64,000 bases of DNA from a virus (lineage: Duplodnaviria; Heunggongvirae; Uroviricota; Caudoviricetes), in IMG/VR virus record IMGVR_UViG_3300001357_000001, positions 1-64,000 of that record; one strand, given 5' to 3'. The notes below the pieces were generated by a model. It did no database searches. It worked only from the letters and a program-made list of their open reading frames with translations, and was not told the origin of the DNA. Shown one piece after another: positions 34,888 to 62,024 of the stretch (position 1 is its first letter; each line of letters begins with the position of its first letter). The position numbers were made by a program, and so were the translations under genes.

Positions 34888-34918
34888 AATCTTGTTTTTA
34901 TCCCACCGCACAAAAACG

Positions 34919-35050: not shown

Positions 35051-35069
35051 CATAAAAATTCCCGCTTTG

Positions 35070-36002: not shown

Positions 36003-36004
36003 AT

Positions 36005-36361: not shown

Positions 36362-36380
36362 CGCCCACGCTCAAAACGAA

Positions 36381-36480
36381 ACGCTAACAAGCGGTCATAG
36401 TTAATAAAGCCAATTAAGTTTAGTTCGTTGTAGGTTGCGGTAGTGGGTGGCTTTACTAACCATACCGCAAGCCGTTAGGC
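36381..36480. repeat. attC-like element C
   Basis: CGCTAAC-aaGCGGTcATaGTTAaTAAAGCCA ... TGGCTTTAcTAACcATACCGCaagcc-GTTAGGC. Confidence 0.6.
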
Positions 36481-36490
36481 ACAATAAAAA

Positions 36491-36637
36491 TTACTGCTCC
36501 AACTCTTTTAGTTTAGCTTCATTTTCCTTAATCAACTTATCAAGTAAACCTTTCATTACTGGTGGTAGTTGTACCTGCGGTGCATTTAATAACTTTGCGA
36601 CTTCAATATTCATTTCTAATAATTCTTGTAGTTTCAT
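36491..36637 (-). CDS. 48 aa helical protein (cassette ORF; not in the ORF track)
   Basis: MKLQELLEMNIEVAKLLNAPQVQLPPVMKGLLDKLIKENEAKLKELEQ. Confidence 0.3.
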   Translation of the reverse strand: MKLQELLEMNIEVAKLLNAPQVQLPPVMKGLLDKLIKENEAKLKELEQ

Positions 36638-36810
36638 ATTCGTAATTTTTACAGATGCCTAACAGCAAGTATAAAACATGCCTGTCGTGCATCTAAGTTA
36701 ATATTTATGTTAATTTCAAATTAATTGTTTCAATTAAAGTTTGTGTTAGCACGTTTCATACTTGCGTACCGTTGTAGCTTAATTGACAGCTCGCCATCAC
36801 ACATGCTCCA

Positions 36811-37083
36811 TTAGCAACAAATAATTTTACTATATCCTTTTCCTCCATTAAGTGCATAAGGTATATTTTTACAACTGTGCTTATCATCGCAAACCAATTT
36901 TCCACTATAATCTCCATCTTCATCTTTTACAACAATCACTTCATAACCCCATTCACTTTTTAGTTTATCACCAACTAAAATTGGTTGCTTATTATCGTCA
37001 TAAATTCCCGTAAAATTATCATTTCCTAACAATGTATAAAGTTCATTTCTTTGGTCTTTTTGCTTATTATTTTCTGTACTCAT
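36811..37083 (-). CDS. hypothetical protein (cassette ORF)
   Basis: 90 aa. Confidence 0.4.
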   Translation of the reverse strand: MSTENNKQKDQRNELYTLLGNDNFTGIYDDNKQPILVGDKLKSEWGYEVIVVKDEDGDYSGKLVCDDKHSCKNIPYALNGGKGYSKIICC

Positions 37084-37730
37084 ATTTTCCTGTATTTTAA
37101 TTAAATTAGTTGCTATTTCAAAGTCGAAACGAAACCTTATATTAGTACGTTAGTGCGTGTTCCGTTACTACATTCAATATATTTTGAAGTAGTTCTAATT
37201 CGGTTTCTTTTCTTTCAAGGATGTTGTTTATATCAGTTCGTTTCCGTTCACATTCAGTTTTTGCTACTTCTCTATTGTAGTAAGAAACCTCTATTTCTAA
37301 TTCCTCAATTTTCTTTGATAAGTAATTTAGTTCGTGTTCCATATCCATAATTTTACAATTTCATATTACCATCCGTTATAAACAAATAAAATTATTCAGT
37401 TTTAGTTTTACCAATTTACACATATCAATAATTAGTGTCCAAGCATTTGTATATATTAATATACCGTCATCTTTTTGTTTGAATCTCATTCCTAATTTAC
37501 CTTTCGTTAATTTTTCTGGTTCTTTTAAGTCCATAATTTTATCAGATTTATAATATGGCATTAGGTAATTCACAAAAATCAGGTATATTAGGTGTTTTAT
37601 TATCTACACAAATTGAACTATTTGATTTTTCACAGATAAAACTGTAAAGCCATTTGTCTTTTTTACAATAAGGACAATCTGTACAATTTTTTATTGTTAA
37701 AGTAAGTTTTTTCATAATTATTAACGCCAC

Positions 37731-37841
37731 ATAACAATGTATATAAGGCATTGCCTCTGTGGTCTTTTTATATTTATAATTCTGTCCATTCTATCAAAGT
37801 CAGTGAAGGCAACGCCTCATATTATCAACATTTTCGTTAGA
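37731..37841. repeat. attC-like element E
   Basis: ACATAAC-aaTGTaTATAAGGCaTTGCCT ... AGGCAACGCCTCATATTATCAACAttttc-GTTAGAA. Confidence 0.5.
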
Positions 37842-37846
37842 AGTTT

Positions 37847-37999
37847 TTATTTTTGCCCACGCTCTTCAAAATACTCAACCAAAATAGTTTCTACCATATT
37901 ATTGAATGACGGTCTATTTTGTCTTTCCTTTTCTTTCTTAAGTTTATCAACTAACCAATCATTTTTGTCGGTTAGTTTTAATGATATTCGTTTAGACAT
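37847..37999 (-). CDS. ribbon-helix-helix (CopG/Arc-like) DNA-binding protein, 50 aa; not in the ORF track
   Basis: MSKRISLKLTDKNDWLVDKLKKEKERQNRPSFNNMVETILVEYFEERGQK; start overlaps the stop of the upstream gene by 8 nt. Confidence 0.45.
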   Translation of the reverse strand: MSKRISLKLTDKNDWLVDKLKKEKERQNRPSFNNMVETILVEYFEERGQK

Positions 38000-38435
38000 A
38001 TTGTTCTGATTTAATTCTTACTTCAATATCTGCAATTACAAAATCCCAACGTCTTTGGAACAAATCACCATTAGCACGTAATTCACCATAATAGTCTTTC
38101 ATATCATGTGCCATGTGTTCATCTCCAAATTGATAGTGGTCTAATTGAACACCAGCCAAAACATCATCAGTATTCCATTGTTCCCAATTTTTTCTAACAA
38201 TCTTTTCAAATTCATCGTTGTTTTCAGGGAGTGAAGTTCCTATTTCTTGAATGAACATATCCAACCAATATGGGACCATATGTGAACCTTCGTCATCCAA
38301 ATCCATTAATCTATATTCAGATAACTTCATTTCAAGTATGTTACAAATAAAGTCAAATCCGTTTACTCTTGTAATAACACCATCGTCATTTACATCAATT
38401 TCAGTTTCGCTAAATGGAAGTTTAAATGTTTTCAT
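37992..38435 (-). CDS. hypothetical protein, co-transcribed with the RHH gene; possible toxin-antitoxin-like pair
   Basis: 147 aa; a promoter variant TTGAAACA ... GACGTATAAAT lies upstream at 38450-38490. Confidence 0.4.
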   Translation of the reverse strand: MKTFKLPFSETEIDVNDDGVITRVNGFDFICNILEMKLSEYRLMDLDDEGSHMVPYWLDMFIQEIGTSLPENNDEFEKIVRKNWEQWNTDDVLAGVQLDHYQFGDEHMAHDMKDYYGELRANGDLFQRRWDFVIADIEVRIKSEQYV

Positions 38436-38582
38436 AATCTTATCGTTTTATTAATTTATACGTCAAAGGTAATACTTTTGTTTCAAATAAACAAATATTT
38501 TTTGAATTATTTTCCCTACCTAAAAAATAAAAACTTCTTTATTGCTTCGTATTGAAATTCAGGTAGATAAACCGCATCAGCC

Positions 38583-38710
38583 GATAACAAGGTGTATATG
38601 TAATGTGAGGTTCGGTGGTGTATTCAACATTTATACTTCTAATCAAGTTCTGTGGTTAAATCAGATGTAGTGTTTCAAATCTCACACTACATATACACCC
38701 AACCGTTGTG
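38583..38710. repeat. attC-like palindromic element, inverted copy of the 651-778 element
   Basis: reverse complement is about 90% identical to 657-785. Confidence 0.6.
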
Positions 38711-39223
38711 TGTAAGTGCTACATTTGTGCATTTAATGAAAGTTTCTGCAAGTTTGACCATAATTAAATATTTTCCGACCCTCTACCTCTACGCATATCA
38801 TGTATCTCCCATGCAATTGAAGCTGCAAGATTTTTTGAATAGGTGCATCCTGAAGTGTAGCATTTGTCTTTTCTTACATCTTTTTCAGCCTCTTCTTCCC
38901 ATTTTTTTTTTGTTGGATAAATCGGGCATTGTAAACATGGGCAAATAGTATATTCCCATTTTAATTCTTTCCTTTCAAAATTTATTGTATTTTCCATCTC
39001 AAACTTTCTTTATGTATGAATGATTTTTCAAAACAATATGGGCATTGCATCACATCGTCTTGCTCCCTCATTGTGTTTAAATCAAAAAATGCCATCGCAC
39101 AAAATATTTAATTATTACTCTATTCATTTTATCAACATTCTGCTAATTTGACCGCACCAGACACACAACACAAAATATAGTGCATAGCCGATTAAACATT
39201 TGTTTTTCATTGTCAACGCTCAC

Positions 39224-39514
39224 TTAACACCATCTTATTTTATTTTCAGTCAAAAAATAATGAGTTCTACATTTAAAAGTGTTGCCAATACTTGGTTTTA
39301 CTGTTATTTTTTCATCTTTGATATTAATTACCCATCCTCTATTCCTATTCAAATCGTGATGCAAATAAACTTCATTTCCACATCCACAAGGGCATTGATG
39401 TACTGTGTTAATTTCATCTCTCCACACTTTTACATATATAATTCCATATTCTTGTTCAGCTTTTACTGGCAAATCCCTTACTGCTTTATATTTTAATCCT
39501 GCTAATTTCTCCAT
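39224..39514 (-). CDS. small zinc-binding protein
   Basis: HQCPCGCGNEV ... CRTH. Confidence 0.35.
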   Translation of the reverse strand: MEKLAGLKYKAVRDLPVKAEQEYGIIYVKVWRDEINTVHQCPCGCGNEVYLHHDLNRNRGWVINIKDEKITVKPSIGNTFKCRTHYFLTENKIRWC

Positions 39515-40114
39515 CGCTTTAATTTTAAATACTAATCATATACCTAACCATTAGGCGTAATTGATACTATCTTCATCACAAAAACTTAATCCACCATCGT
39601 CAAATAAAACTATTGTATTACTTTTTGTTGCCCCATATCTGTGAAATTCACCTAATCTATCACCAACGATTACTCTATCACCTTGCTTAAAACAACTACG
39701 CCTAACAATATCTATATTGCATGGCTTTTCGGCTTTTGAATCTTTTGCACTCATATCAATATTTTTTTTAATTTGAAACTATGTGGCTTTGCTGTTGAAG
39801 CCACGACAACATAGATTAACCGTTAGCAAACATTTGGCTTACGTATTCTATTTAATATTTCCTCATTTGTTTGTAAATCGGAAGATGTAACATCATCACC
39901 TATAATAGCATCATCTCTACCTAAATTATATGCCCTCAATAAAAGTGGGTTAGGATTCCACATCTTTGCCCTACCATCAAGTTCATTATTAAACCCCCAC
40001 ATATAAGTTTCCAATAAAAGTTTGTTTTGTTCGTTCATATCTTTTATCTTTCAATTAAGTTTAGTTTTAAAATACTCACGGACGGTTATACTCGTCCGTT
40101 ATAAACAAATAAAA

Positions 40115-40354
40115 TTATTCGCTCAACCTCTTATAAGCTTTCATACATATCTTACAAGCATCTGCAACCAATAGCAGTTCGCCATCCATTTTATCAAATA
40201 GTTCAGCTTTGCCATCTTCATTTATTTGTCTAAACTTACCACATAGGGTAGTATTCCTTTTATTCCCTCCTGCACTCATTTTTGGAACGTAAGCATGTTG
40301 TTTGCTCATTCGGTGCGTATTTTCACTTTCTAAGGTTTTCCAAAGTACTTCCAT
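40115..40354 (-). CDS. hypothetical protein (cassette ORF flanked by exact repeats)
   Basis: 5' leader TTATAAATCTGATAAAATTATGG and 3' region CCGTTATAAACAAATAAAATTATTC are identical to those of the ORF at 37376-37573. Confidence 0.4.
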   Translation of the reverse strand: MEVLWKTLESENTHRMSKQHAYVPKMSAGGNKRNTTLCGKFRQINEDGKAELFDKMDGELLLVADACKICMKAYKRLSE

Positions 40355-40485
40355 AATTTTATCAGATTTATAACAAGCAACATAAGTAATTGCCTGTCAT
40401 GTTTATACCAAATTTTAAAGTTAATACTTGTATGGTCGCACTAACCATACCTACGAGCGTTAGGCAGAATAAAAAATTACAGTTG

Positions 40486-42774
40486 CTATGATAAATCCAT
40501 AGCAAGCTGTAAAATTGTTATTTGTTCTTCTTCTAAGTTTTCTGCATTCCAAGGAAGATTAAAATAACTTAATGTTTTAGTATTTTTCTTTTGCAATTCT
40601 TCAACTTCATCTACCCATTCACAAAATTCTTTTTGTTCTTTAGTAGGTTTTACTTTTTGAAAATCAAAATATTGACCTAATTCACTTCTATAATGTTGTA
40701 TTCTACTATCTCTAATATTATTAGGAATTGTATTGATAAAGGCATTAATTTTCTCAATCTTCTTTCCCCAATTATCATCAATTTTATTAATAAAACCTTT
40801 ACGATAAAAATCGGCAAGACCTTGATATTTTTCAACAACACTATATATTTGAAAATATTTCAATATCATGTCTTCTTTTCTCGGCAACATATAGGTAAAG
40901 AAATCTTTTATGTGTCTGGCATTCTTACAATACTTCAAATATTTAGTATTGTTTTTCGATACCTGTATAAACATAATGCTCTTTTTATCACTATCACTTT
41001 TCAAATTTTTTCTATAATCAATACGTCTGACAACAGCATCAGCATCAAATAAGAGTTTAAACAACCTAACTGCTTCATCAAGTTTATAATCATCATCAGT
41101 AGTACCATAGAAAATCGGCATATTATAATCAAATAAATTACCTAACTCAACTCTGTCTCTGGAATAACCGCCAATAAATTTAACAGGAATAGTCTTTTTT
41201 CTAAGTTCAGAACTAAGTTCGTTTTTACGTTTACGACTTTCAATAAATTCTTGTGGTACTTCTAATTCATCATAATCAATTCCATTCTCACGAATGATAT
41301 CGAAATATTCTTCTTGCATATCAATTAATTCCTGAACAAAAGGTAGTGTATTACCTTTGTCATCAACAATATCATCAAGATGTACATTGAATACGTCAGC
41401 AATATCAGAACGTGACCACTTACTAATTATTCTTTTCTTAATAATATAGTATGTCTCGAACTCACTCTTAAGATATGATTGCTTAATCATTTTACGATTA
41501 AACTCACCATCAACATATACTATGTTATTCTTATTTACAATCGTCTCATATCCACCTTCAAATCCGTCTCTACTTGCATAATAACCATATCTTCTTCTAG
41601 GCTTTTTACCATAGGTTTTTGCATCAAAGAAAAATCTAAACAATTGTTTGTCATTAGGCATTTTAGTAAATTGATACTTGAAGTTTGAGAAGTCAATATC
41701 TTTTTGAGTAATTAGATTTCCTACGTACATTGACTTGTTATTAGGAAAAACTAATTTACCGAAGTCATGCTTAACCTGAAAATATTCCTTTAATGTAACA
41801 ATGTCTTCATATTGCTTACTAATTAAAGTAATAATTTCATTCTTAGCTGCTTCTAACTTCTTCTTCAACATTTTGATTGTAGTCTCACTATAATCAAGAC
41901 TCTCACGACTAACTGTAACACCTATGTCACCTACTTCAAGTTTTAGTGCAATTGGTAGACTGTAATCGCTTGAATGTAAATCTAATGCATCATAATCAAT
42001 CGGATAAGCGACTTTACCTAAACACACGTGCATGTTGTTACTATAGTCATCACCACGAAATAAGAAGTTCTTACCTCTGATTATCAGATAATCATTAGTT
42101 AATGTATCATGTTGATATGTGTCTTCAAAACCTTCAAAAATGATGTTTTCGAAGTAATAAAGTTGTCTCACCATTTCTTTAGCAAAAGTGCTAATATCTT
42201 TTTCAAGTACTGGAACTTGGATTTCAGTACCATTTCTTTCTTCTGTTGGTTCTTCATGAAGTTTTGAAATTCGAGGTGTATGTTTACCTTCATATATATG
42301 ATATATGTATTTAATACCATTAAAAACAGTTATAATTTGATATGAATTATCATATTCTGCTTCACCTAAACCTATTTTACGTTTATATGCTAACGGGGTC
42401 TTCGAACCCAACCCAAACGCACCAATCTGGTCATTACTATCACGTTTAGTACTACTAAACATCACAGAAAATATTGTATCTATTCTTTGTGGTGATATTC
42501 CAACACCATAATCAATAAAACTAATATAATGAGTACCCGTTGTATTATCTTGATGTTTTTTTATTAAAACAGGGGCATTAGCTCCTGCTTCAACATGACT
42601 ATCAAAACAATTCGATGTTATCTCACGAACAACACTACCAATAGGATTACTATAAATGTTTTTTGAAAACATTTGAAAAATAATGCTTTGTGAATCATTA
42701 GATAATGTAATATCTTTTTCTTCGGTTGTAGTCAAAACATCAACATCGGAATAACTATTAATATCGTATTTCAT
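40486..42774 (-). CDS. rIIA: rIIA-like protein with an N-terminal GHKL (Hsp90/MORC-type) ATPase domain
   Basis: N box EITSNCFDS, G1 box FIDYGVGIS, G2 box IGAFGLGSKT; 762 aa, comparable in size to T4 rIIA. Confidence 0.55.
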   Translation of the reverse strand: MKYDINSYSDVDVLTTTEEKDITLSNDSQSIIFQMFSKNIYSNPIGSVVREITSNCFDSHVEAGANAPVLIKKHQDNTTGTHYISFIDYGVGISPQRIDTIFSVMFSSTKRDSNDQIGAFGLGSKTPLAYKRKIGLGEAEYDNSYQIITVFNGIKYIYHIYEGKHTPRISKLHEEPTEERNGTEIQVPVLEKDISTFAKEMVRQLYYFENIIFEGFEDTYQHDTLTNDYLIIRGKNFLFRGDDYSNNMHVCLGKVAYPIDYDALDLHSSDYSLPIALKLEVGDIGVTVSRESLDYSETTIKMLKKKLEAAKNEIITLISKQYEDIVTLKEYFQVKHDFGKLVFPNNKSMYVGNLITQKDIDFSNFKYQFTKMPNDKQLFRFFFDAKTYGKKPRRRYGYYASRDGFEGGYETIVNKNNIVYVDGEFNRKMIKQSYLKSEFETYYIIKKRIISKWSRSDIADVFNVHLDDIVDDKGNTLPFVQELIDMQEEYFDIIRENGIDYDELEVPQEFIESRKRKNELSSELRKKTIPVKFIGGYSRDRVELGNLFDYNMPIFYGTTDDDYKLDEAVRLFKLLFDADAVVRRIDYRKNLKSDSDKKSIMFIQVSKNNTKYLKYCKNARHIKDFFTYMLPRKEDMILKYFQIYSVVEKYQGLADFYRKGFINKIDDNWGKKIEKINAFINTIPNNIRDSRIQHYRSELGQYFDFQKVKPTKEQKEFCEWVDEVEELQKKNTKTLSYFNLPWNAENLEEEQITILQLAMDLS

Positions 42775-48422: not shown

Positions 48423-49696
48423 TTTATTTAAAAATATTAAATAAGTATTTTTATTAACCTAAATCTCATGAAAAGCAACCAAGTTATGAGAAAATATATT
48501 CCCCAACAAATTAAATATGTCACAAACCATTTTTCTTCGTATTGACTTTCATTAACAAAATTAAGAAATAATCCGAAGAAAATATTTAATCCAAATAAAA
48601 TATCTAATATATGTAATTTCATATTATTTAGCAATTAATTCAAAATTTTCTTTAACAAACTCCGTACATAATTTTTCATCTTTACTATTGAATTTAATTA
48701 TCTCACCACTCCATTTGTAAGGTATGGCATATATCCCTGCAAACTCATTATTATTTAAACGATAAATATCTTTAATAAGATGTTCAATTATATAAGATTT
48801 CTTATTTTCTTTATGTCTGTAAATATTCATTCCTCTACTTCAAAATAATATGGTTTCCAACTATGAAATCCTTGTTGACTACCATCATTACCTGTACTGT
48901 AATATGGATTATTAATGTTAACTGGACGAGCATTAATATATGGTTTACCATCTTTTGTAAATGCACTGCCAATAACGCACCTAACATCCCACTGTTTGCC
49001 TTCTTGGTCTTCATAATGACCTAAACCATGCATCAGAGGATTTGCTTTTAATTTGAGAGTTTTTACTTCTCCTTCATATTTTGTTCTATAACTAAAATTC
49101 ATTCTACTAAATATTCGTTTTTATAATCATTAACACTAAAATCTTCCACCCAATTTTCAAATAGTTCTTGAGCATATTCTTTTGCTTTATTAATATTTTT
49201 AAATTTTCTAAACGATAGTATTTCAAAGTGTTCTGAATTTACAACAAATTCTTTATCAGTGGTTGGACGAATATTTCCTATTTCAAATTTTCTTTTGCCA
49301 TTAGGAGCAAAAATTTTAATTTCAAATAATTTTTTTTCAAATATTAGTTTATTTATTCCCATAGCATGATAATATTTTTATAAATTATCCCAATCAGCAA
49401 TTTTATCCAACAACCATTTAGGTACGGTTATTAAATTTCCTTTAATTACACATACTGATTTAGGAAACCATGTTTCTGCATCACCAGTCATAATTAATAA
49501 CCATGCCTTTGATGTTTCTTTCTTAATGGTTTTAAACTCTAAAATAGTTTCAGGTTCTTCTATGCCTTCAATATAAGAGCAATTATCATCACAAATATCA
49601 TCATTGATGGAACCAATTTGATAGATTCCATCAAGATATTCGTTCATCCCCCTATCAATTTCTATGTCGGCATATTCACCCATATTTTTTTATTTA

Positions 49697-49726
49697 TTAT
49701 ACGAAGATAATAAAAAAATGTTACAA
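49697..49726 (-). promoter_or_regulatory. phage promoter-like motif (minus strand); 35 bp identical to 52287-52321
   Basis: ATTATACGAAGATAATAAAAAAATGTTACAATTTA. Confidence 0.55.
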
Positions 49727-49727: not shown

Positions 49728-50906
49728 TTAATCAAAATTAAAATATTGTTTGTTCATTGCTATTCTATCTTTTGATATGCTCATGAACATTCCCGCACTG
49801 ATTTTAATTAATCTCCAACCCAATTTCATCGTACTCTGATGACAATTCTGGATATAATCAAATATTATCTGAATTTGTTTGTCGGTCATCTGTACATTAG
49901 CTTTATCTATTTTTTCATTTAAACATCCTGCAAAATGGACATTATTGCCATGTATTTTAACCCAACCCTGTTGTTCTAACCAAACATCTGGATTAACCTT
50001 ATTTCCGTACTTATCTTCTTCATTAGGAACAATACCTTTTTCTTGCAGGGCATCGGCAATTTGATTATGTAACATATTAGCAATTTCACCATTTAAAGCA
50101 TAATACTGTCCTTCTGGACTCAGCCATCCCGCACTATAATTATCTAATATGTCAACGGGTTCAATACCTTCTTCAATCGTTTTATTAATTTCTCTCGTGG
50201 CATTAAGATAATTGGTTAGTTCTGATGCTTCTTCAAAATTAAAATCAACCATATCACCAACGATTCTCTTAACACTATCAATCATTAATAATGCTTCCCC
50301 AAGTTCGTATTCAATATCATTTTTTTCAACATCAGTTAATTGATTATGAAATATTTTCGATAAATCTTTAATTGTAGTAAATATCTTAAATGATGTTTCG
50401 ATATATTTTTTTGCAAGTATTGCACCATCATATGCTGTAGATATTACCTCGTCTTCAAGTAATATTTCTAATGCATCATCACCTTTTAGATTACCACCAA
50501 ATAATAATTTTAACCTCGATATAGGAATGTCAATATTAAATTTAGTTCTGTATCTAAATTTTCGACTAACTAAATCCAATATGGTTTTCATTTCTTCACC
50601 ATTATCGAAGATTTCTTTACATTTTTTTACCGACCATTCGGCAATATCAAAAACAGGATAATCTACATGATTTTCATTACGTTCAGTATTTACATTAACT
50701 TCTTCACCACCTTCACATACTTCGATAACATAATCACCTTTAATCACTTTTAATGCCATTTCAACTGGAATACCTTGTAAGCCTTCTGTAATGGTTTCAA
50801 CACCTTTTTTTACATCATAATTATACATGATATGTTCTTGTGCTACCTGCGCAAGTAATATTCCAAATGTCTCGCCTAATCTCATGTGTAATACTTGTGT
50901 GCTCAT
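49728..50906 (-). CDS. hypothetical protein (start adjusted to MSTQVL; the upstream part of the supplied ORF contains the promoter)
   Basis: about 392 aa. Confidence 0.45.
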   Translation of the reverse strand: MSTQVLHMRLGETFGILLAQVAQEHIMYNYDVKKGVETITEGLQGIPVEMALKVIKGDYVIEVCEGGEEVNVNTERNENHVDYPVFDIAEWSVKKCKEIFDNGEEMKTILDLVSRKFRYRTKFNIDIPISRLKLLFGGNLKGDDALEILLEDEVISTAYDGAILAKKYIETSFKIFTTIKDLSKIFHNQLTDVEKNDIEYELGEALLMIDSVKRIVGDMVDFNFEEASELTNYLNATREINKTIEEGIEPVDILDNYSAGWLSPEGQYYALNGEIANMLHNQIADALQEKGIVPNEEDKYGNKVNPDVWLEQQGWVKIHGNNVHFAGCLNEKIDKANVQMTDKQIQIIFDYIQNCHQSTMKLGWRLIKISAGMFMSISKDRIAMNKQYFNFD

Positions 50907-50932
50907 AATTTTGTGTTTTTGATTATAATTAT

Positions 50933-50962
50933 TATACGAAGAACAACAATTTTTGTTACAAA
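50933..50962 (-). promoter_or_regulatory. phage promoter-like motif (minus strand)
   Basis: reverse complement of TTATACGAAGAACAACAATTTTTGTTACAA. Confidence 0.55.
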
Positions 50963-51438
50963 AAAACCCTTTCAAGTCATGACTTTCTTAACATAAACTT
51001 GAAAGGGTTTTAGTACAGTCGCAATAGGGTGCGAACCCTTCTGTACCAACCATTGCCGTAGTCACTTTCTTGGCAGTTGCTTTACGTCATGTAAACCGCA
51101 ATCCCACAGCAATCAAGTGGGGATATTTTGGAGAGCGTGGCACAACTTTTCACCCGACTCCGCTATTTCGGACACCAAGCGAATTTTCGGTTGGATTTCT
51201 CGTGACGATGGAGGGATTCGAACCCACAATAACCTTAATCATAATTAATATTCAATACTGTCTATCATGTTAATGTTTACGTAATTATCAACATGATTTC
51301 CTTCTCGTCCATTAATTAGACAACCATAACTCATGCGCCATCATTATGGTAATGGTACTCTCCCATCTCAAAGCTGACAAGGAAGCGACTTTGAACCAAT
51401 TTGTCCACACCGTCATAAATATATAAGAACGTTTTTTG

Positions 51439-51530
51439 TGGTATTGAAAGGAATCGAACCTCTCTCCAGAGTAAAAATCTGGCACATTGCCACGTAGTAT
51501 CACGTTAATACTACTCCATGCTTCAATACC
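51439..51530 (-). tRNA. tRNA-like gene, anticodon UUU (Lys) predicted, with an atypical 21-nt hairpin insertion in the D-loop region
   Basis: minus strand reads GGTATTG ... CCAGA-TTTTTAC-TCTGG ... AGAGGTTCGATTCCTTT-CAATACC-A; 7 bp acceptor stem; canonical GGTTCGATTCC T-arm. Confidence 0.45.
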
Positions 51531-52286
51531 ATTATTATGTCATGATGAGTCTTTTAATTCCTCTGAATCTACAGTCCTTAACATCACTGATGTTTTACTG
51601 GAATCCAATTATAATTAAACTCGCATCTTATTGTTGCATTTCATCAAGACGTTCTCTTTTAGCATATCTAATTAAAATCTTGAGTTTAAAACCCTAACGG
51701 ATGTCTGCGCTTGACTCCATTTGAGGCACATGAGAAGATTCTAACCCCTTACCTATCGCATATTACGAAATCCCTTACTTGGTAAGGTAAATAGAGATTA
51801 CGGCAACAATATTTTAAAATGAATAATCTGCCTTGCCAAGGGTAAGAATGCCTACGCTAAGATTTCTTAGGTCTTAGAAGGAGTGTCTACCTCTTATATG
51901 ATTATTAGTCATACTGTACTAACAATTCTTAATCCATCTGAACACCATTTCGGCTTATGGTCTAATAAAACATCCATCACTCAATTAGCAAAGCATTTAA
52001 CAACGATGTTACTCGGAGTTACTATCTTGGGTCTTTTATTGTAATAGACATCGGATTTATTTGTTCAGCTTCATCAGATTATTCATTATATTTTAAAAAT
52101 TACACTATACCAGACAGCCATCCCGATATCTGCCCCTTCTGAGGTTAAGGAACGATACTAGTTTATTATCTCTTGACGTACACTAGCGTAAATTCACACA
52201 GGTTGATTTTTATGGGAAATTACCCCCCAATGGTGATTTTATCTAATAATGTAATTCCGATTTCAATATTTTCAAAGAACTAATTA

Positions 52287-52316
52287 TTATACGAAGATAA
52301 TAAAAAAATGTTACAA
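52287..52316 (-). promoter_or_regulatory. phage promoter-like motif oriented to transcribe the ORF-free tRNA-like region
   Basis: identical to the promoter at 49697. Confidence 0.5.
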
Positions 52317-53296
52317 TTTACCACCAGAAAATTCCTCCCCAAATAAGAGTGAAAACAATTATTAATATAAATGCAATAAAACCTTCTCCACCACTTTCAT
52401 ATTTCACTCCACTACTAAATAAAGTACCACCAGAATTTTCACTAAGATAATCTATTAACCACCAGATTCCAAGTACTATTATTACTATTGCAAAAACTAC
52501 TATGCTCCAATGTATCATAATTATTTAATTTTATTTGGATAATCAATTATTACTATATCTCGGTATTGTTTCTTTAACCTTCCTTTTTCATCAAAATTTT
52601 CATTTACAATTTTTTTGATTTTATCTAAAGTAACTGAATCTTCTATTTGAATTTTATTTGTAGTTAATTTATCCATTTTTAATTTAAATCAATTATTTCA
52701 CTTCCAATATCATATTTGAATTTGAATTGTTTTGCAATTGAATGAGTTAGATATGGATTAGTAAAAACCTTGTCTTCCAGAACTGCTTTCTTCACGTCTT
52801 CCAGACTTGCCATTCCAAAATCAAAAGACTCACCATAAAAAGTAAAGATTTTATTTTCCAAATCTACTTTATAACTACCACCACCTCTAACCAAATCTAT
52901 GTTTGTTGCTAGTTCTTTATGAAAACTGCATTTACCTAAGATTAAACAATTACCTAGTTCATCATTGGTTTCAATAATATATTTTGGGAATAAATCCATA
53001 GTTTTTAATTAAAAATTACATAAAATCGTTATATTCAACATACTTTTCGTATTTTTCTTCATATTCATTAATGAAGTTTCTTCTAATACTAATCATATCA
53101 TCAACAAGACTTCCACATAAACCTTCGTTTCTGCGTAATAAATATATTGATACTTCACAAGTAAGTATTTTTTGAAGTGCTTGTGCTTGTTCATAAGGAA
53201 CTAAACCATCAATACCTTCTTCATCATAATCAACTTCTTTTCCTTGACGGTCAAAATACTGATTATATGTGTCTAATAAATCTACGTACATAATAT

Positions 53297-53710
53297 TTAA
53301 TTTTTTAATGCGTTATCAAAAATTTGTTTTAATTCATTTATTGTCTCATAGTCTTCACGTTCTAATGCAGAACTAATTACAGATTTTAATTGAAGTTTTA
53401 ATTCAACTAATTCATCTTTTGCTTCTGGAACAACACCATCATCCCAAACATATAATGCATTACCAAAACTCTGGCGATTTAAACCACATTTCCCACACTT
53501 ATATGCATTTCCATGTTCTTGGATATCATCAGCGATTTTACCACATCTAGGGCAATAAAATTGTTGTATTTCATCATCTACTTCACGACCTAAAACCTGA
53601 CTTTCTTTAGTCACAGGTATATATTTTGTATAATCCGATGCATGAAGTTTTTCTGCATGGCTAGGATGATTAAATTCTTGAAATACGCCTATTAATTTAT
53701 CTCTACTCAT
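53297..53710 (-). CDS. zinc-ribbon protein
   Basis: CPRCG ... CGKCG. Confidence 0.35.
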   Translation of the reverse strand: MSRDKLIGVFQEFNHPSHAEKLHASDYTKYIPVTKESQVLGREVDDEIQQFYCPRCGKIADDIQEHGNAYKCGKCGLNRQSFGNALYVWDDGVVPEAKDELVELKLQLKSVISSALEREDYETINELKQIFDNALKN

Positions 53711-53903
53711 AATGTTTTTAATTAAAAGTTCTAGTACTAATAAATCCGAAAAAAAACAAGAAACCTATTATTGGTATTAACAACCATAATAAATCATACC
53801 ATTTCGCTAATTTATATTCAGGTTCTTGTTCTGGATAATTTCTTGCCAATAATCCATCTAAATAAATTATCCCTGCTATCTTATTTAATTTTTTTAACAT
53901 TAT

Positions 53904-54230
53904 TTAAAAGTTCTTATAATCATCGTCATTTAATCCTTCGAATGGATGCATATCGTCATAGACACTACGATAGTCTCTTTCATCATGTCTACTTCCCATA
54001 AAAGCAGCACTTGCAGGACTTATTCTGGTTGTGTTATTCCTTTTCTCTGGTGTAACAGTATTCCAATACTTGTCTTTGCACTTAGTACCTGACTTAGATT
54101 TACAAAATGCTTGTTGATAATGTTTCTTCTCAAATGGTTGACCACAAGAAGGACAGTAACAAGTTTCACCTACTTTTGCAGATTTATTTTGTAAATATGT
54201 TGCTCTTATATTTATTACTGATTTTTTCAT
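53904..54230 (-). CDS. zinc-ribbon protein
   Basis: CYCPSCG ... CKSKSGTKC. Confidence 0.35.
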   Translation of the reverse strand: MKKSVINIRATYLQNKSAKVGETCYCPSCGQPFEKKHYQQAFCKSKSGTKCKDKYWNTVTPEKRNNTTRISPASAAFMGSRHDERDYRSVYDDMHPFEGLNDDDYKNF

Positions 54231-54537
54231 AATCTCTTAATAACTTAAACGTTCATCAAATTCCTTGGCAGTACAGATGTTATGTTTAACATATAATTCT
54301 TTGTAATGCCACCATCCCTCAACTCTACTATTCCAGATTATTTCCATTGCTTTTGGAATATCTTCTTCTTTAAGACAGGGATAAACGTTATTCTGTTTTG
54401 TTATAATCCCGTTTCTATTTAATACAGTTTTTTGACTTGACATTTGAGATAAATCACCATCAAGAAAAAATGTATATTTATCATTCTTTTCATTATTTAT
54501 TGCTGACCGTAATAAGTTTTCCATATTGTTTTTTATT

Positions 54538-54568
54538 ATTATACGAAATAAAAACAAAAGTGTTACAA
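54538..54568 (-). promoter_or_regulatory. phage promoter-like motif (minus strand)
   Basis: reverse complement of TTATACGAAATAAAAACAAAAGTGTTACAA; the N-terminus MFLFRII of the supplied ORF 54237-54557 is this promoter translated. Confidence 0.5.
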
Positions 54569-55680
54569 AATAATTAGTTCATCATCAATCATTATCTGAA
54601 TATTAATTTTAAAATTAACTATGCTTCTATTTGAAATAATAATGAAATGTTTGAAAGAATTTAATAATTCATGAATATGGTAGTTATCTGAATTAGCCTT
54701 GTAAAAATCAATTGTTGTTTTAATTCTATTATTCAATTCAATTACTCGTATTCGTTGTGAACTAATATCTGGTACGGTTGAAAGTAATTCATTTAAAATA
54801 ACCTCAATATCTTTAATTAAATTAGATTTATTTGGTTCTGCTAAAAATGAAGGTTGTGTAGTGTATCTATATTCTAATTTTACTGGAAATATCATAATAA
54901 TCTTTTAATCAGTTAAAAAATTAAATACGTCTTCCAGTACTTCTGCATCGGCATCAGGATTCTGTTCAGTAAGCGAATACATGTACTTAAATCCTTTAAA
55001 CCTACGAGACTTGAATATTTCATCAATAACCACACTATTATAACTAACATCATTATCTTTAGCATATTCTCTGGCAAGTTTTTCTGCTTCTGCGATTGGT
55101 ATTGCTCCACCACCAAAATAACCTAATATCCAATAATTTCTTTTCAACTTATTATCGTAGTAAATATTAAAATCAGGATGATTTTTATAATCACTTTTTC
55201 CTTCATATAATATTGAGATTAATACCCACACAAATAACAGTACGGAAATCAATATTGTGGCTAAACCTAAATAAAATAATATTCTATTATCATTTTCAAT
55301 ACCACTCGATGATAAGAACGAACTTATTAATAATAATATAAATGCCGTTGACATTAAATTAATTCTTTTCATAATATCTTATTTAAAATATTTCATGTCA
55401 GTCCATGCAACACGATTCATTTTATAACCAACACCATCATTACCAATAGCAAAATTCATTGAATCTAGTGCTTCTGGATTAAAATAAATTGGATATTCAG
55501 CACCTATTTCAAATTTATCGTTAACCGACCATTTGTCAGGTAATACATCACCTCTAAACATAGCTGTTCCAATTGCTTCAAGTTTATCTGGTAAATGACT
55601 CATTGGCGTGTGTTTAGGCACACATAATGCTGTCCTGATTTCTCTTGGTTCACCAATACTATAATTATTGTTCATATTTA

Positions 55681-56025
55681 TTAAAGAAATTGTTTAATTA
55701 TATTATTAAAGATTTTCTTATTAATTGGTTTAGATAATTTAATGTCAAAACAATTTAATTTATCTGATTCTAAATCTAAATGTGCTGATATAGCAATTAC
55801 TGGTAACTCAGGATTAATCTTTTTAATTTCAATTGTAGCATCAATGCCGTCCATAACTGGCATCATAATATCCATGAAAATTAAATCAATTTGTTCTTCA
55901 TTAAATATTTTTAATGCTTCCTTACCATTTCCTGCCTCAAAAATATTAATATTTTTATTTAAAACATAATGTTTTAATAAATATCTATTAATTTGTTCAT
56001 CATCAACAATTAAAATATTTTTCAT
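55681..56025 (-). CDS. Stand-alone CheY-like response-regulator receiver (REC) domain protein
   Basis: ILIVDDE acid pocket; DLIFMDIMMP phospho-acceptor Asp; AISAH; LSKP conserved Lys. The canonical REC residues are all present. Confidence 0.8.
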   Translation of the reverse strand: MKNILIVDDEQINRYLLKHYVLNKNINIFEAGNGKEALKIFNEEQIDLIFMDIMMPVMDGIDATIEIKKINPELPVIAISAHLDLESDKLNCFDIKLSKPINKKIFNNIIKQFL

Positions 56026-56522
56026 GTTTATATTAAGTTTAATATAAATACAATTTATTATATGGAAATTTCAATACCCAATAACTTATTTACCCAAATT
56101 AAATAATTAATGGCATCGAAAAAAGGAAGGCTATCTGTAAGTTCTAACATTTCCTGTTGAGAATAACGTCTGGTCTTTGCTACTAACTTTATGATTTCTT
56201 TTACTGTCATAACATCAAGTTTTAGTAAAGGTAAATACTTTTAAATTTGAAATTATTTCTCTTTTTTTAATTCAAATCCACATTCTTCTAAAAACCCCTG
56301 ACCTACAGGACTACCAAGCCATTGAATAGTACTTATAACTATTTTTTCCTCTCGTTCTGTCAGAAATTCACTTGGTTGTATACCATTCTCTTTTGGTGGG
56401 AAAACAATCATACTCATATCTTTATCACCATGTTTTTCAATGAATTTATCATGCAATTCCTTTTCTACAGGATTACTCTTATGTCTGTATTTCTTATATC
56501 CTTCCATAATATATTTTTATTA

Positions 56523-56552
56523 TTATACGATTTTAATTAAATTATGTTACAA
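56523..56552 (-). promoter_or_regulatory. phage promoter-like motif (minus strand)
   Basis: reverse complement of TTATACGATTTTAATTAAATTATGTTACAA. Confidence 0.5.
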
Positions 56553-57015
56553 GTTCTAATGATAATTTTCTCTGCTTCTCTGCAATACTTTTTGCTTTCT
56601 TATTTTTAAATATATGATATGGAGTATCGCCTTTCTCACTATTACATTTAAAACAACACTCAACAAAATTTGAATTATCTAATATATTATCAACTTTACT
56701 TGCAGGTATCATGTGGTCGATTGTAATACAATCTTTAATATTTTGTCTGTTCTTATTTCTTTTAGGAAGATTATAGACTGGCTTATGACAATAATGACAA
56801 GTCCAATGACCATTTCTTCTCACTTTTCTCAAAAAATGTCTTTTAACAATGAATAAATATCGCCAATCATTTTCCTGACTATAACTCACATCTAAATCCT
56901 GATAATAATTTCTTAATAATAGTGATGCAGAATATGATTTTGGACTTGAAGGTATTGTTAATATGACATGATTTAACCTTCTGTTTTTCGATATGTTATT
57001 AAAAACAATTTTCAT
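56542..57015 (-). CDS. HNH endonuclease
   Basis: CHYCHKPV ... TIDHMIPASK ... CCFKCNSEKG. Confidence 0.65.
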   Translation of the reverse strand: MKIVFNNISKNRRLNHVILTIPSSPKSYSASLLLRNYYQDLDVSYSQENDWRYLFIVKRHFLRKVRRNGHWTCHYCHKPVYNLPKRNKNRQNIKDCITIDHMIPASKVDNILDNSNFVECCFKCNSEKGDTPYHIFKNKKAKSIAEKQRKLSLELVT

Positions 57016-57354
57016 TTATTTTTTTAGTTCTTTTAATATGCTTTTGCAAATCATAGTTCTTTCCATGTTTTCTGTCGGAGGAAACCAGAATAAACCATCA
57101 TCGTCAATAACAGTACCAACATAATCATAAAAAATATCTGGTTTATGTTTTAATAATTCTGGAATTAATTCAAAATTATTGCTATTAACATCAAAATAAT
57201 ATTGAAAAAGATTACAAAACCCAAAATCAAATAAATCCGTAGCATCATCAATGACTTGAATTTCCTGTGTGTATATTTTCAAACAAAACTCAAAAAATCT
57301 TATCTTCTGAGCAACGCTCATTTTACCTTTATAATATCTAATTTCTTCAATCAT
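57016..57354 (-). CDS. hypothetical protein, paralog of the ORF at 63656-63982
   Basis: shared AQKIRF, IPELLKHKPDIF / IPEFLQYKPDTF and FWFP / FWFK. Confidence 0.45.
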   Translation of the reverse strand: MIEEIRYYKGKMSVAQKIRFFEFCLKIYTQEIQVIDDATDLFDFGFCNLFQYYFDVNSNNFELIPELLKHKPDIFYDYVGTVIDDDGLFWFPPTENMERTMICKSILKELKK

Positions 57355-57357
57355 AGC

Positions 57358-57669
57358 TTATTTTTTAAAAAATGTTTTATAATTCGTCTTATGTATTGGA
57401 TTACTACAATTTCCTTTGTGCGTGAGAAAATCACTACGATTACCATTTACAACCCCAATATAATCACAACCATCAATCTTATATTGATAGATTACCGTAT
57501 ATTGATTTGGAAACCTACTTTGAATAGTATCAATTGGCTGTCCTTCTATCCAGTTCTCACCAATAACTTCATTAGGTCTATCATTATCACTTATTCCACA
57601 AGCAATTAATGTAATAAGACTTAAAATTAATAATGTCGTTAATATTTTAATGACTATGTTTTTATTCAT
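57358..57669 (-). CDS. lipoprotein
   Basis: Signal peptide with lipobox LIAC. Confidence 0.45.
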   Translation of the reverse strand: MNKNIVIKILTTLLILSLITLIACGISDNDRPNEVIGENWIEGQPIDTIQSRFPNQYTVIYQYKIDGCDYIGVVNGNRSDFLTHKGNCSNPIHKTNYKTFFKK

Positions 57670-57715
57670 ATCTTTTATTTTAAAAGTTTGACATTATATT
57701 TCTAATTTATTGTTA

Positions 57716-57745
57716 TTATACGAAGATAATAAAAAAATGTTACAA
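57716..57745 (-). promoter_or_regulatory. phage promoter-like motif (minus strand)
   Basis: TTATACGAAGATAATAAAAAAATGTTACAA. Confidence 0.55.
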
Positions 57746-57788
57746 AAAATGAGAGAGCAGTAGTCTGGTTAACTAGCGATACTCTCTC
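57744..57788 (-). terminator. rho-independent terminator abutting the promoter -35; loop AGTTAACCAGACT
   Basis: minus strand GAGAGAG-N24-CTCTCTC followed by TTTTTT. Confidence 0.55.
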
Positions 57789-58590
57789 AAATTAATATAA
57801 ACCCTTAATGACTCAAATATACGAAAAAGACTTATGTTTGTTACAATTCTCGTCCTTATTTTTTCTTATTTAAGAAGACTATTTTCATTGTTCTTAATAA
57901 AAAAAGTCAATAATTGCACTGCCAAGCATTTTAAATAAAATACCGACAAAGAATAAAAGCATAAGTAATACTGTTGTAATAATGCCTGTTAATATTATTT
58001 TACCTGCATCAATACGATAATCTCTTTTCTCTGGTAACGACATATCTCTTACATAATGATTGTAAGGAATAATACCTATTAAATATAAGATAATAAGTAC
58101 TGACATAATACTGATTAAACCAACTAAAAAATCTATCATAACTTCTTATTTAAAAATTATTAATCATATTTTTTTAATTTTTCTTCAACACTTTCTAAAA
58201 TAGCAAGTATTTCAGGAGTCTGTTTTGCTTTGCCTTCAATTAAAACTGGATTAGCAAGTACTTCTTTTAAAAAAGTAGTACTGAAATTATCAATATTATT
58301 TCTATCGGCAACAGGATGCATATAATGACCATCATTTTCATCACCAAAAATATTGATAAGCATTGCAATTAAGTCTTTCTGTTCGTCATTAAGACCTAAT
58401 TCTTTTAACCATACAACAGGTTTTGATTTATCGTCTTCCATTATAATTTTTATTTCACAATAAGGTATATGAATAATACGAAGCGGAGAACGTAATTGCT
58501 ATTAACTTAAAACTCCCACAAGGCAACGTTTTTAATTTAGTGACACTATGGTGAATCCGCAGTATTCATATACTTTATCGTTATTACATA

Positions 58591-58620
58591 TTATACGATT
58601 ATTAATTAAAATTGTTACAC
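58591..58620 (-). promoter_or_regulatory. phage promoter-like motif (minus strand), followed by a 150 nt GC-richer leader
   Basis: reverse complement of TTATACGATTATTAATTAAAATTGTTACAC. Confidence 0.45.
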
Positions 58621-60309
58621 CACCGTTTCAACTTATGATACCATTTATTATAAATCAAATCTCTTCTTTTTCTTAACACAATACAATTATCACAATTACA
58701 ATATTCCTTTGGGTTCGAACCCCCTACACCTTCAGGCAATATTGCTAAATTATGTTTATGCACTTTTGGTAGCTTTCGTTTCATATTTTTATTTAAATTT
58801 ACCAATTTCTTTTCAAAACAGGAAGTTCGAAAATAACTAAATCTTCTTCTCGATAATCTCCATCACCAACCCATATGTCGGCAGGAACAAAATATGATTT
58901 ATAATCATCTTTGATTTCATAAGTATTAATACTTGCAAATGCCTTATGTGTTGGTTTCCAGAACTCAAACCACTTACGATTAGTTTTTGCTAAAACAATT
59001 AAGTTATCTGAGGTCTTATATGTGCTCCAAGGAAATGGATGTACAGTACTATGTGGATAAAAACCATTTTCTTCTTTTAAATCATTCAGGCATTGATTCC
59101 AATCATCTAAATTCCTGATATTTTTAAAATAACATGGACTATCTGAACCAGTACAAGAACCAATATGTTTTAACTCACCTTGTTCCTCTACGAATATTTC
59201 GTTATAAAATGCCATAATAATTAGTCGTTTTTATATAATTTTTTTATCTGTTCCGTAATTACAATTATAATATCGGAAATTCTTTTGTTTTGCTCAGAAT
59301 ACCTTATCATTGTCTCATTATTTGATTCATCAACAACAATCTTAGTACCTTTATGTTCGACACTTATTTTCATAACTTTTATTTAAAATTACCAATTGAT
59401 TTCAATTTCATATTCCCCTGCTTCAAGTAGACCTTTTTTATGTAGGTCATTGGCAAGTACTTCTAAATTAGGATAGAAATTTCGTTGCCAAAACAATTTA
59501 ATTTCCCAATCCTCTGTTCTATCATCAACAGGTTCTTTAGGGTCACGTTTTAACCATGATTCGAATTTAACACCCATTTCACTACCATTAACTACTTCTG
59601 GAATGCTTTCAGCCATATTAGCATCGTTTTCATCAGCTTCATCATAAGGAACACTTAGATGAACCATACCTCTACCTTGACAACCATCTTGTTGTTGAAA
59701 ACTATATGGTTTACCATAGGTTTCCTTAACTAAATCATCCCAATCAAATACATCAATTATTTTTTTTGTTTTTACCTTAATCATAATCACAATTTTTTTA
59801 GAACAGTACTTACTTTATTTTTCATTGCATTTACCTTCGAAACAAATGTTTCAGTATCTAAGTCCGAAGTAGCTTTTGCTTTCAAATGTACAGGAATGTC
59901 TTCACTTAATGCCTGTAATTGATTTTCAAGTAGACTTAAGGTCTTGTAAATACCATCAGTATTTTTTTCATTTAACTTATTAAGTACATCAGAACTATAT
60001 ACGCTTTTTGAACCCACACCTGTTTCAAGAACGTTTGTGATTTCTAACCATAAGTGATGTACGTCTTCAAAATCATCAGCTTTCATTGGTAGTGATTTCT
60101 GAAGTTGTAAATTATTTATTGAAAAAGAACTACCACTATCTTGCCAACCACCATAATATGAGTATTGAAGTACGTTATCTTCACCTAAAACAACACTTAA
60201 GGTCATCTTATTCCCAAATTGTTCATTAAATGAGTCTGAATACGATTCATCATATAGTCTGAAAATAATTAGTCTCTTTTTCATAATATTTTTGTATTAC
60301 TTATAGTAG

Positions 60310-60349
60310 TTATACGAAAAATCCTTAATAATGTTACATATTAAGGATT
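60310..60349 (-). promoter_or_regulatory. phage promoter-like motif whose -35 is embedded in a perfect 11 bp inverted repeat (possible operator)
   Basis: AATCCTTAATA-ATGTTACAT-ATTAAGGATT. Confidence 0.45.
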
Positions 60350-60371
60350 TGATTCAATTATTTTATTGTAA

Positions 60372-60797
60372 TTAATTATCAATAAATTTTTTATACTCTT
60401 TAGGTATTTCACCTTCAAACTTCTGCCAATTAAATTTAGACGATTGAGCATTATATTCTGCTACTAATGAATTATAAGACGCTTTTATTCCTGCTAATTC
60501 AATTCTCCATTGATTCAATTGTTCTTTATCAGTCCTATCCCAATCTTTTCTTTTCACATCTTCATAATCTTCCACCATCTGATTAATGTTTGCCTGATAA
60601 ACTTCGATATCTTTTTCCTTTTTATCTAGTTCGGCAGATGCATTTTTGAACCACTCGTATTTTTCTAACATTGCAGAAGGTGAAAATTCTTCTTTAGCGA
60701 CATCAACGGCATCCCTTGTGAAAAAATTACAAGTTTTGATTACAAATAATCCAATAAATACCGCTACTACAATTAGTACTATCTTATATGTTTTCAT
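60372..60797 (-). CDS. membrane-anchored protein
   Basis: N-terminal transmembrane helix. Confidence 0.4.
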   Translation of the reverse strand: MKTYKIVLIVVAVFIGLFVIKTCNFFTRDAVDVAKEEFSPSAMLEKYEWFKNASAELDKKEKDIEVYQANINQMVEDYEDVKRKDWDRTDKEQLNQWRIELAGIKASYNSLVAEYNAQSSKFNWQKFEGEIPKEYKKFIDN

Positions 60798-60798
60798 A

Positions 60799-61323
60799 TT
60801 AATTGGCTTCGAAATTTATAATAATATTTTTCACAGCTAGTGGTTGGTCTGAAATATGTAGTATCTGACCACCGCTTACATAATGTTGATGATAACGACC
60901 TTGAACATCCCACCAAAATAAATAAGGTATTGACGAACCATATGTTCCATCATCTTGAATCACTTCCTTAGTATAATAATTACTTCCACCAATATTAACT
61001 TTCATTGCTTCATCCGAACCAACAATATCACCAGTACCACCATTAAGTGTTGTTGGAGTTAATCTCTTACCTGAACTAGTTACCTTACCATCTACAGTCG
61101 AATAAATAAGTACCTGACCAGACATCGATGAAATCACATATAGATGTTTAATCGAACCCGGTTTGTTTTCCTGTTCTAATCTTTTAGCAACATTACTTTG
61201 TTCAAAAGTTAGACCATCTGATTGTACTTCAACTTTTGCTTCTGCCTTTTTTACACCCGATGATGATTCAGGTACGGCATCTGTTGCATCACATCCAGAA
61301 TTACTCATTAATGCGAACATCAA
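60799..61323 (-). CDS. lipoprotein
   Basis: lipobox MSNSGC. Confidence 0.4.
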   Translation of the reverse strand: MMFALMSNSGCDATDAVPESSSGVKKAEAKVEVQSDGLTFEQSNVAKRLEQENKPGSIKHLYVISSMSGQVLIYSTVDGKVTSSGKRLTPTTLNGGTGDIVGSDEAMKVNIGGSNYYTKEVIQDDGTYGSSIPYLFWWDVQGRYHQHYVSGGQILHISDQPLAVKNIIINFEAN

Positions 61324-62024
61324 TAAAATTGTAAAAATACTAAAATTTTTTTTTTCATAATTACTTTTTTTTTTGTTAATAATTTATATTTAAAAACCAT
61401 TTATTTTTATATAAAAAAGCATCCAATATCACAAGGATGCATTTATATTTGTGTTAAAGAATGTCGTCTGTCGGGTCTCTATCAAGTAATAGAAACATTC
61501 CAACACCAAGACATAAAATAACTCCAAATACTACTCCCCATCCAACAAACCAGTCTGCCCAATAAGTTGTTAGGTCTTTACTTACTGCTCCCAATAAGGT
61601 AAACAGTATAAGTAATAGTACTAATCCAATAAGTTGTTTGATTTTCATAAATTTAATTTTAATTAATACTTAATATAAATATCTTCTTGACTTTATTATA
61701 CGATAATTATGTCAAAAGGTTACAAAGAATTAAGATAATAATCACTTGACATTAATTCCTGTGTATTTTCAAATCTTAAATTAAATAGGTCAGAAGGAAT
61801 GCAAATTAATTCTAAATCCCACTTAAGTAATTCTTCTCGCATAGCAAGAAACAAATACTCTTTATCAATCAATCTCTTATCGATTTTAGAACTACTCGAC
61901 ATGATATAAACTCTATTATCATCAGGAAACGCACAGAGCTTGAAGATAAAATAATCTGTACGTAAGACATAATGAACGTTACTATGATTGCCATGTCCTA
62001 CTGGATAACTTTTTAATTTAGTCA

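Follow-up and report, generated by a model that had tools for sequence, protein, structure and literature searches.

A stand-alone receiver protein of a T4-like jumbo phage that may tap host phosphorelay signalling

The stretch of DNA analysed here (the window) comprises 64,000 nucleotides of the IMG/VR virus record IMGVR_UViG_3300001357_000001 and carries a gene that, judged from its sequence and modelled structure, encodes a genuine single-domain response regulator of a T4-like jumbo phage with a genome of about 348 kb. The protein, hereafter REC, is predicted to be phosphorylatable and probably taps host phosphorelay signalling. It is well supported as an annotation but does not amount to a novel type of system. 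Bacteria rely on two-component phosphorelays as their principal sensing circuits, and the same architecture is found in at least one antiphage system, Detocs; a bare viral receiver of 114 residues could silence or eavesdrop on the two-component circuits of the host. The gene is small, intact and conserved in several uncultured large phages.

The REC gene lies on the minus strand, and the coordinates 55681-56025 given for it earlier match exactly one ORF, with an ATG start and a product of 114 aa, the stop codon being included in the interval. The proposed membership in the Response_reg family held in a profile search against Pfam PF00072, with an E-value of 2.3e-24 and a score of 86.1 bits (curated cut-off 30.2). 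The match spans residues 4-107 of the protein and positions 1-103 of the 111 in the profile, and the Pfam scan returned no second domain in REC. A phmmer search of the PDB yielded 171 receiver chains at E<=1e-3; among the top matches, at about 1e-13, are the receiver of RcsC, one of the CovR/VicR type and several CheY proteins.

The residues of the phosphorylation site were located by alignment with Escherichia coli CheY and Bacillus subtilis Spo0F. The CheY reference sequence scored 269.5 bits against PDB 1djm_A over residues 1-129. D8 and D9 align with CheY D12 and D13, D52 (in FMDIMMP) with the phospho-acceptor position D57, S80 with T87, and K99-P100 with K109-P110. The codons concerned are located as follows:

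55999..56004, minus strand: codons of D8 and D9
55870..55872, minus strand: codon of the phospho-acceptor D52
55786..55788, minus strand: codon of S80
55729..55731, minus strand: codon of K99

Across 64 homologues and the phage relatives (41-63% identity), the active-site positions are invariant or occupied by S/T. The earlier note had described a complete REC domain with every phosphorylation-site residue in place and no output domain. The first part is borne out by the Pfam match and by the alignment with CheY and Spo0F, on which D8, D9, D52, S80 and K99 are correctly assigned, and the second by the gene layout, as the ORF ends at 55681 and the next one begins 5 nt downstream.

An alignment-based AlphaFold2 model of REC has a pLDDT of 94.8, a pTM of 0.90 and five beta-alpha units, with strands (E) and helices (H) in the order E2-7, H11-20, E26-31, H34-43, E48-51, H60-70, E76-80, H87-92, E95-98 and H103-113, and thereby displays the doubly wound (beta-alpha)5 fold of the receiver superfamily. 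Foldseek comparison with the PDB gave TM-scores of 0.91 to Spo0F (6ifh) and of 0.85-0.91 to RR468, CheY, DivK and hybrid-kinase receivers. The aromatic switch position, Y106 in CheY, is a lysine in REC (K96) and in both close orthologues, and helix alpha4 (residues 87-92) is short and has the lowest confidence in the model. Furthermore, no che or flagellar families occur among the Pfam matches of the 140 window ORFs. Since both the switch aromatic and a che context are lacking, and the translation signals described below suggest a host of the Bacteroidota type, the designation 'CheY-like' given earlier stands for the fold, but does not extend to CheY proper.

The gene had also been called phage-encoded, and this is confirmed by rIIA and rIIB in the window, by the roughly 140 mostly small ORFs surrounding it and by the circular assembly of a genome of about 348 kb. 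These two genes and the NUDIX gene of the window are:

40486..42774, minus strand: rIIA, 762 aa, PHROG 612 (E 1e-66), a phage hallmark
33352..34551, minus strand: rIIB, 399 aa, PHROG 609 (E 5e-35) and PF26926 Phage_T4_rIIB, a phage hallmark
62584..63045, minus strand: NUDIX hydrolase, 153 aa, with a 71%-identical orthologue two genes from REC in a related phage (L007-L009)

The ORFs fall into two arms of opposite orientation, which converge near 27.3 kb. PHROG matches in the window also include a cytosine methylase, an HNH-type endonuclease and a radical-SAM protein, while endonuclease VII, denV-type glycosylase, YopX, LAGLIDADG and NUDIX are among the other Pfam families. In T4, rIIA and rIIB are adjacent; here they lie about 6 kb apart (34552..40485), with some 16 small minus-strand ORFs of 46-147 aa between them. 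A tyrosine recombinase of 268 aa (window 4353..5159, plus strand), with Phage_integrase and SAM-like N-terminal domains, is also present in this rII-bearing T4-like jumbo phage. Another ORF, of 186 aa (window 15169..15729, plus strand), contains EGC and HEINH motifs and a C-terminal tail; we take it to be the source of the Pep_deformylase and SEC-C matches in the window, which would be an unusual fusion, the Pfam scan having listed these families without mapping them to ORFs.

The exact REC protein is also encoded on an ENA contig of 348,137 bp (ERZ27249344:k141_72552), whose position 1 corresponds to window position 36051. Looking up REC on this contig and applying coordinate arithmetic places its other end at window position 35911; on this reckoning, the contig ends have 141 bases in common, a length equal to the k-mer of the assembler. 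An independent Logan contig bridges the end with 0 mismatches. Together, overlap and bridging contig indicate a complete genome, which closes in assembly into a circle of about 347,996 bp, the form to be expected when a T4-like phage is circularly permuted. The window and a contig of JGI sample 3300000353 (ElkS_mat_MD6A) are 100% identical over 10.9 kb that include REC; the sample name presumably denotes an Elkhorn Slough microbial mat, which would make this a phage of a marine mat. Megablast of window 50000..62000 against GenBank phages gave no match, and there is thus no close isolate among them.

The REC gene is part of a long series of small ORFs that all point the same way and have no family assignment. 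In the direction of transcription, its surroundings are:

56542..57015, minus strand: free-standing HNH endonuclease, 157 aa, with matches to HNH families of PHROG (best E 8.7e-12), immediately preceding the REC unit
56522..56550, minus strand: promoter-like motif GTAACA-N14-TCGTATAAT, the nearest upstream of REC, 15 nt upstream of ORF 56507..56253
56253..56507, minus strand: ORF of 84 aa, first in the putative REC unit, without family assignment
56058..56210, minus strand: ORF of 50 aa, second in the putative unit
55681..56025, minus strand: REC, 114 aa, third ORF after the promoter-like motif
55379..55675, minus strand: ORF of 98 aa, starting 5 nt after the REC stop, without Pfam or PHROG match
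54905..55372, minus strand: ORF of 155 aa in the putative unit, with a hydrophobic N-terminal half, without family assignment
54563..54895, minus strand: ORF of 110 aa, the last before the next copy of the motif (54566..54538)

The promoter-like motif occurs 25 times in the window, against 2.08 expected, in short intergenic gaps, and all copies except one (24/25) have the orientation of the genes in whichever of the two convergent arms they lie; the motif scan also placed copies at, for example, 5162..5190(+), 24649..24677(+), 49696..49724(-) and 58590..58618(-). Its -35-like element is unlike TTGACA. A sigma-70 consensus scan of the window showed no excess (97 sites vs 95.9 in shuffles), and the Bacteroidota -7 box TAnnTTTG is not enriched in window intergenic DNA. 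The motif is probably the main promoter class of the accessory region of the window. As copies at 56550..56522 and 54566..54538 flank the unit, we infer that REC is probably co-transcribed with the five anonymous small ORFs from this promoter class.

Another transcription unit, of about 1.3 kb (window ~50962..52314, minus strand, GC 0.34), is devoid of ORFs. It has a copy of the promoter motif at its start, a strong hairpin with a T-run at its end and three tRNA T-arm-like motifs, one of which lies in a 93-nt tRNA-like element (51440..51530) with an acceptor-like stem of 9-11 bp and an RNAfold z of -3.84. ARAGORN and Rfam called nothing in this unit beyond sub-threshold tmRNA scraps, and a tRNA scan and Rfam at gathering thresholds gave nothing for the whole window. 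The unit could represent degenerate tRNAs, a tmRNA-like RNA or another structured RNA.

The close clade of REC comprises three protein clusters, namely the window protein, P0002 (63% identity) and P0003 (61%). The P0003 contigs have four other genes in common with the window, at 51-71% identity but in a different order, the arrangement being genes for 123 aa, 99 aa, REC, 109 aa and NUDIX. On the P0002 contig, a homologue of window ORF 61454..61648 directly precedes REC. These genes stand apart from REC in the window, where other ORFs fill the roughly 5.4 kb in between, and the neighbours of REC differ between the window, L007 and L010. Given orthologues with rearranged neighbours, REC is stably maintained in an accessory region of shuffled gene order, without a conserved adjacent partner. 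The 98-aa ORF immediately downstream was considered for this role and rejected, as it has no family and the related phages lack a homologue of it at their REC loci. A third lineage (IMG/VR L001-L003) encodes a stand-alone REC of 116 aa with about 42% identity, on contigs that carry GP88, T4-type RNA ligase and NUMOD3 genes. Searching phage records by tblastn with REC returned 78 records, all below 60% identity; these are mostly unannotated metagenomic or multi-contig records and therefore poor evidence for isolate phages.

Cellular relatives do not exceed 50% identity to REC. The best bacterial ones (40-50%) form the C-terminal receiver domain of hybrid histidine kinases from Bacteroidota, and single-domain regulators of Archaeoglobaceae reach 42-49%. 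Of the 28 best GTDB genome matches examined, 22 align with REC towards the C-terminus of ORFs that are 400-1565 aa long, and by our own count about 34 of the best 80 GTDB species-genome matches are from Bacteroidota. Five of six relatives tested are HisKA-HATPase_c-REC proteins (fused in L012, L015, L022, L026 and L052). The naming of a donor lineage was abandoned, the archaeal stand-alone receivers and the bacterial hybrid-kinase receivers being equally distant.

The translation signals of the phage bear on its host. A Shine-Dalgarno-like tetramer is found in the 25 nt upstream of only 2 of the 140 genes, compared to a background of 7%, and the gene leaders are A-rich, with A at -3 in 70% of the 140 genes. 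The lack of Shine-Dalgarno sequences together with A-rich leaders is typical of Bacteroidota translation initiation. Leader sequences and the taxonomy of distant homologues thus suggest a host of the Bacteroidota type. The relatives of rIIA were discarded as a guide to the host, since the tblastn matches to Xanthomonas, Ralstonia and Stenotrophomonas jumbo phages, at about 30% identity, are too distant.

A source of phosphoryl groups was sought in the phage itself. No HisKA or Hpt domain is present among the 140 window ORFs in the Pfam scan of 64 kb, nor in the precomputed Pfam matches for about 10 kb beyond each window end; window and flanks (~20 kb, the latter covered by precomputed Pfam matches only) make up 84 kb of the genome of about 348 kb. 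The single HATPase_c match in the window (E 1e-5), for which the Pfam scan gave no ORF assignment, is probably the GHKL domain of rIIA.

The reading to which we tentatively lean is that REC acts as a decoy or sink: phosphoryl groups would pass to it from hybrid kinases or Hpt proteins of the host, and a host relay would be damped or diverted as a result. Which donor supplies the phosphoryl group, in which direction the effect goes and what pathway is hit are matters of inference. REC would be made from a phage promoter together with the neighbouring small accessory genes. Because the phage apparently has no histidine kinase or Hpt of its own, the receiver would then dock onto host phosphodonors, of which hybrid histidine kinases or their Hpt partners are the likeliest, since it is their receivers that REC resembles most. 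The phosphoryl group would be taken onto D52 and, with no output domain to act on, REC would compete with host receivers and drain or divert the phosphoryl flux, so that a host phosphorelay could be silenced or rewired in the infected cell. Possible targets are a stress or envelope response and a defence of the two-component type. The absence of HisKA and Hpt from the window and flank records, the hybrid-kinase-like receiver and the setting among small accessory ORFs are consistent with interception of host signalling. Precedents for such logic are the stand-alone receiver DtcB of Detocs, proposed to take up stray phosphate (bioRxiv 10.1101/2023.01.24.525353), the phage early protein PIT4, reported to perturb host two-component systems (PMC10714779), and non-cognate regulators, which can sequester kinases (PMC10368727). 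The step in which REC mimics hybrid-kinase receivers is weak, because the archaeal stand-alone regulators (42-49%) are as similar to it. In its most far-reaching form, in which a decoy of hybrid-kinase or Hpt relays would serve as counter-defence against a Detocs-type antiphage system by siphoning off phosphate, the proposal is unlikely; if true, it would constitute a new class of anti-defence mechanism, which the stand-alone receivers of other viral contigs could share.

REC could also be a phospho-dependent adaptor, or 'listening post', which we regard as a less probable but serious alternative. A host kinase would phosphorylate the receiver according to host physiology, and the phosphorylated form would use its alpha4-beta5-alpha5 face to bind a protein of the phage or the host, in the manner of single-domain regulators such as CheY and DivK, thereby tuning phage development, such as lysis timing or takeover, to the state of the host. 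The intact site and the lack of an output domain suit this alternative as well as they suit a sink. The alpha4-beta5 region is the usual output face of receivers. In REC it contains the clade-specific segment CFDxKLxKP, including K96, which is common to the three close orthologues, and this conserved face fits an adaptor at least as well as a pure sink, although surface conservation is uninformative with three close orthologues only. There are documented cases of single-domain regulators that exert their effect by binding to enzymes (PMC12802240). On the other hand, the differing neighbours in the window, L007 and L010 leave no conserved gene as a possible target. A sink or decoy is a plausible, putative role, and no observation made here separates it from a phospho-dependent adaptor.

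That REC is one half of a phage-borne two-component or phosphorelay system, with its kinase or Hpt elsewhere in the 348-kb genome, appears improbable. The scan covered the 64-kb window, with the 20 kb of flank represented by precomputed Pfam matches only, and viral histidine kinases do exist in BFVD, mostly from eukaryotic giant viruses; yet the 84 kb inspected showed no kinase or Hpt, and no kinase is listed at the phage orthologue loci (L007, 12 kb).

Equally little probability is given to REC being a neutral or near-neutral passenger, a receiver captured from a cellular gene into a hyperplastic region, perhaps spread by homing endonucleases, without a role in infection. Its location in a shuffled accessory region would fit such an origin, as would the endonuclease genes just upstream of it. 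A stand-alone REC directly downstream of a homing-type endonuclease is seen in two distant lineages, with an HNH enzyme here and a GIY-YIG/SegE-like one in L003 (L003 9212..9931; weak Pfam matches below the curated cut-off), and these adjoining endonucleases may explain the movement of REC between phages. Against a passenger, REC is intact with all catalytic residues across lineages down to 42% identity, and dN/dS among the close orthologues is 0.40-0.46. Its GC content of 20.9% and GC3 of 13% are below the window gene means (28.9% and 19.6%), which gives no sign of recent import and argues for a long-term resident.

The last alternative, a cRec-type enzyme, would make REC a phosphoesterase of receiver fold with cyclic ADP-ribose or 2',3'-cyclic phosphate ends as its substrates, taking part in the NAD/ADPr or RNA-repair conflicts proposed for jumbo phages (PMC7824862). 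It is highly improbable and was rejected, because REC is a strong canonical PF00072 match and its model matches cRec-annotated BFVD proteins weakly (E 5e-3 to 3e-2, TM 0.54-0.62) but canonical viral receivers strongly (E 1e-9, TM 0.86-0.90). What the cRec domains of jumbo phages have in common with REC is the receiver fold, the jumbo-phage setting and the presence of NUDIX and NADAR genes in the genome. In L007-L009 the NUDIX gene is two genes away from REC; its distance from REC in the window is about 6.5 kb, and in L003 an RNA ligase lies 8 kb from REC. The genome carries NADAR (L134 1439..1966, about 8.5 kb beyond the left end of the window), NUDIX and YAcAr/SLOG genes, none of which adjoins REC in this phage. 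Such genes are components of NAD/ADP-ribose conflict toolkits. The cRec domain is described as a divergent receiver without any occurrence in kinase systems (Iyer et al. 2021, PMC7824862), whereas REC is canonical in both sequence and structure.

Among the closest known systems are single-domain regulators such as Spo0F, Thermotoga maritima RR468/CheY and DivK, with which REC shares length, the (beta-alpha)5 fold and the full active-site set (Foldseek TM 0.87-0.91, 30-35% identity). It differs from them in being phage-encoded, with no cognate kinase, Hpt or che/spo context seen, in the lysine at the aromatic switch and in an alpha4 that is 2-3 residues shorter. With the receivers of hybrid histidine kinases (from Bacteroidota, but also RcsC, Sln1 and GacS D1) it has the S/T-A-H/Y motif after beta4 in common; unlike these, REC has its own start and stop and no fusion to HisKA-HATPase_c. 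As no such relative exceeds 50% identity, the phosphodonor cannot be named.

Detocs DtcB is likewise a stand-alone receiver without an effector domain, and has been proposed to act as a phosphate buffer in a defensive two-component system (bioRxiv 10.1101/2023.01.24.525353). However, DtcB belongs to the host, and the genes for the DtcA kinase and the DtcC receiver-effector accompany its own, whereas REC lacks such an operon, and no HisKA or PNP-type neighbour, as in the Detocs context, was found by Pfam among the 140 ORFs of the window. The sole PADLOC match of REC is a weak one to PDC-M60B (E 1.5e-5, 22.9 bits, residues 2-59); from the profile lengths, our guess is that PDC-M60 corresponds to Detocs.

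No paper in the literature searched assigns a function to a phage-encoded stand-alone receiver. Other virus-encoded receivers, from IMG/VR and BFVD, are at most 42% identical to REC. In PHROGs, receiver-containing families have no assigned function and every matching profile has at least 227 positions, so there is no family of stand-alone size. The viral receiver protein of 270 aa at L126 5773..6582, on a 367-kb IMG/VR contig, has N- and C-terminal extensions, and that of 188 aa at L096 3748..4311 has a charged C-terminal tail; with their non-enzymatic tails, these show that viral receivers come in several architectures. BFVD matches to REC have 143-153 aa and are from uncultured Caudovirales, but also include a 149-aa protein of Alteromonas phage vB_AmeM_PT11-V22. 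About 14 of the 42 IMG/VR receiver loci retrieved contain stand-alone REC ORFs of 103-134 aa. Since such ORFs recur in other viral contigs, REC belongs to a known kind: phages occasionally carry stand-alone receivers, and the one described here is not unique among viruses.
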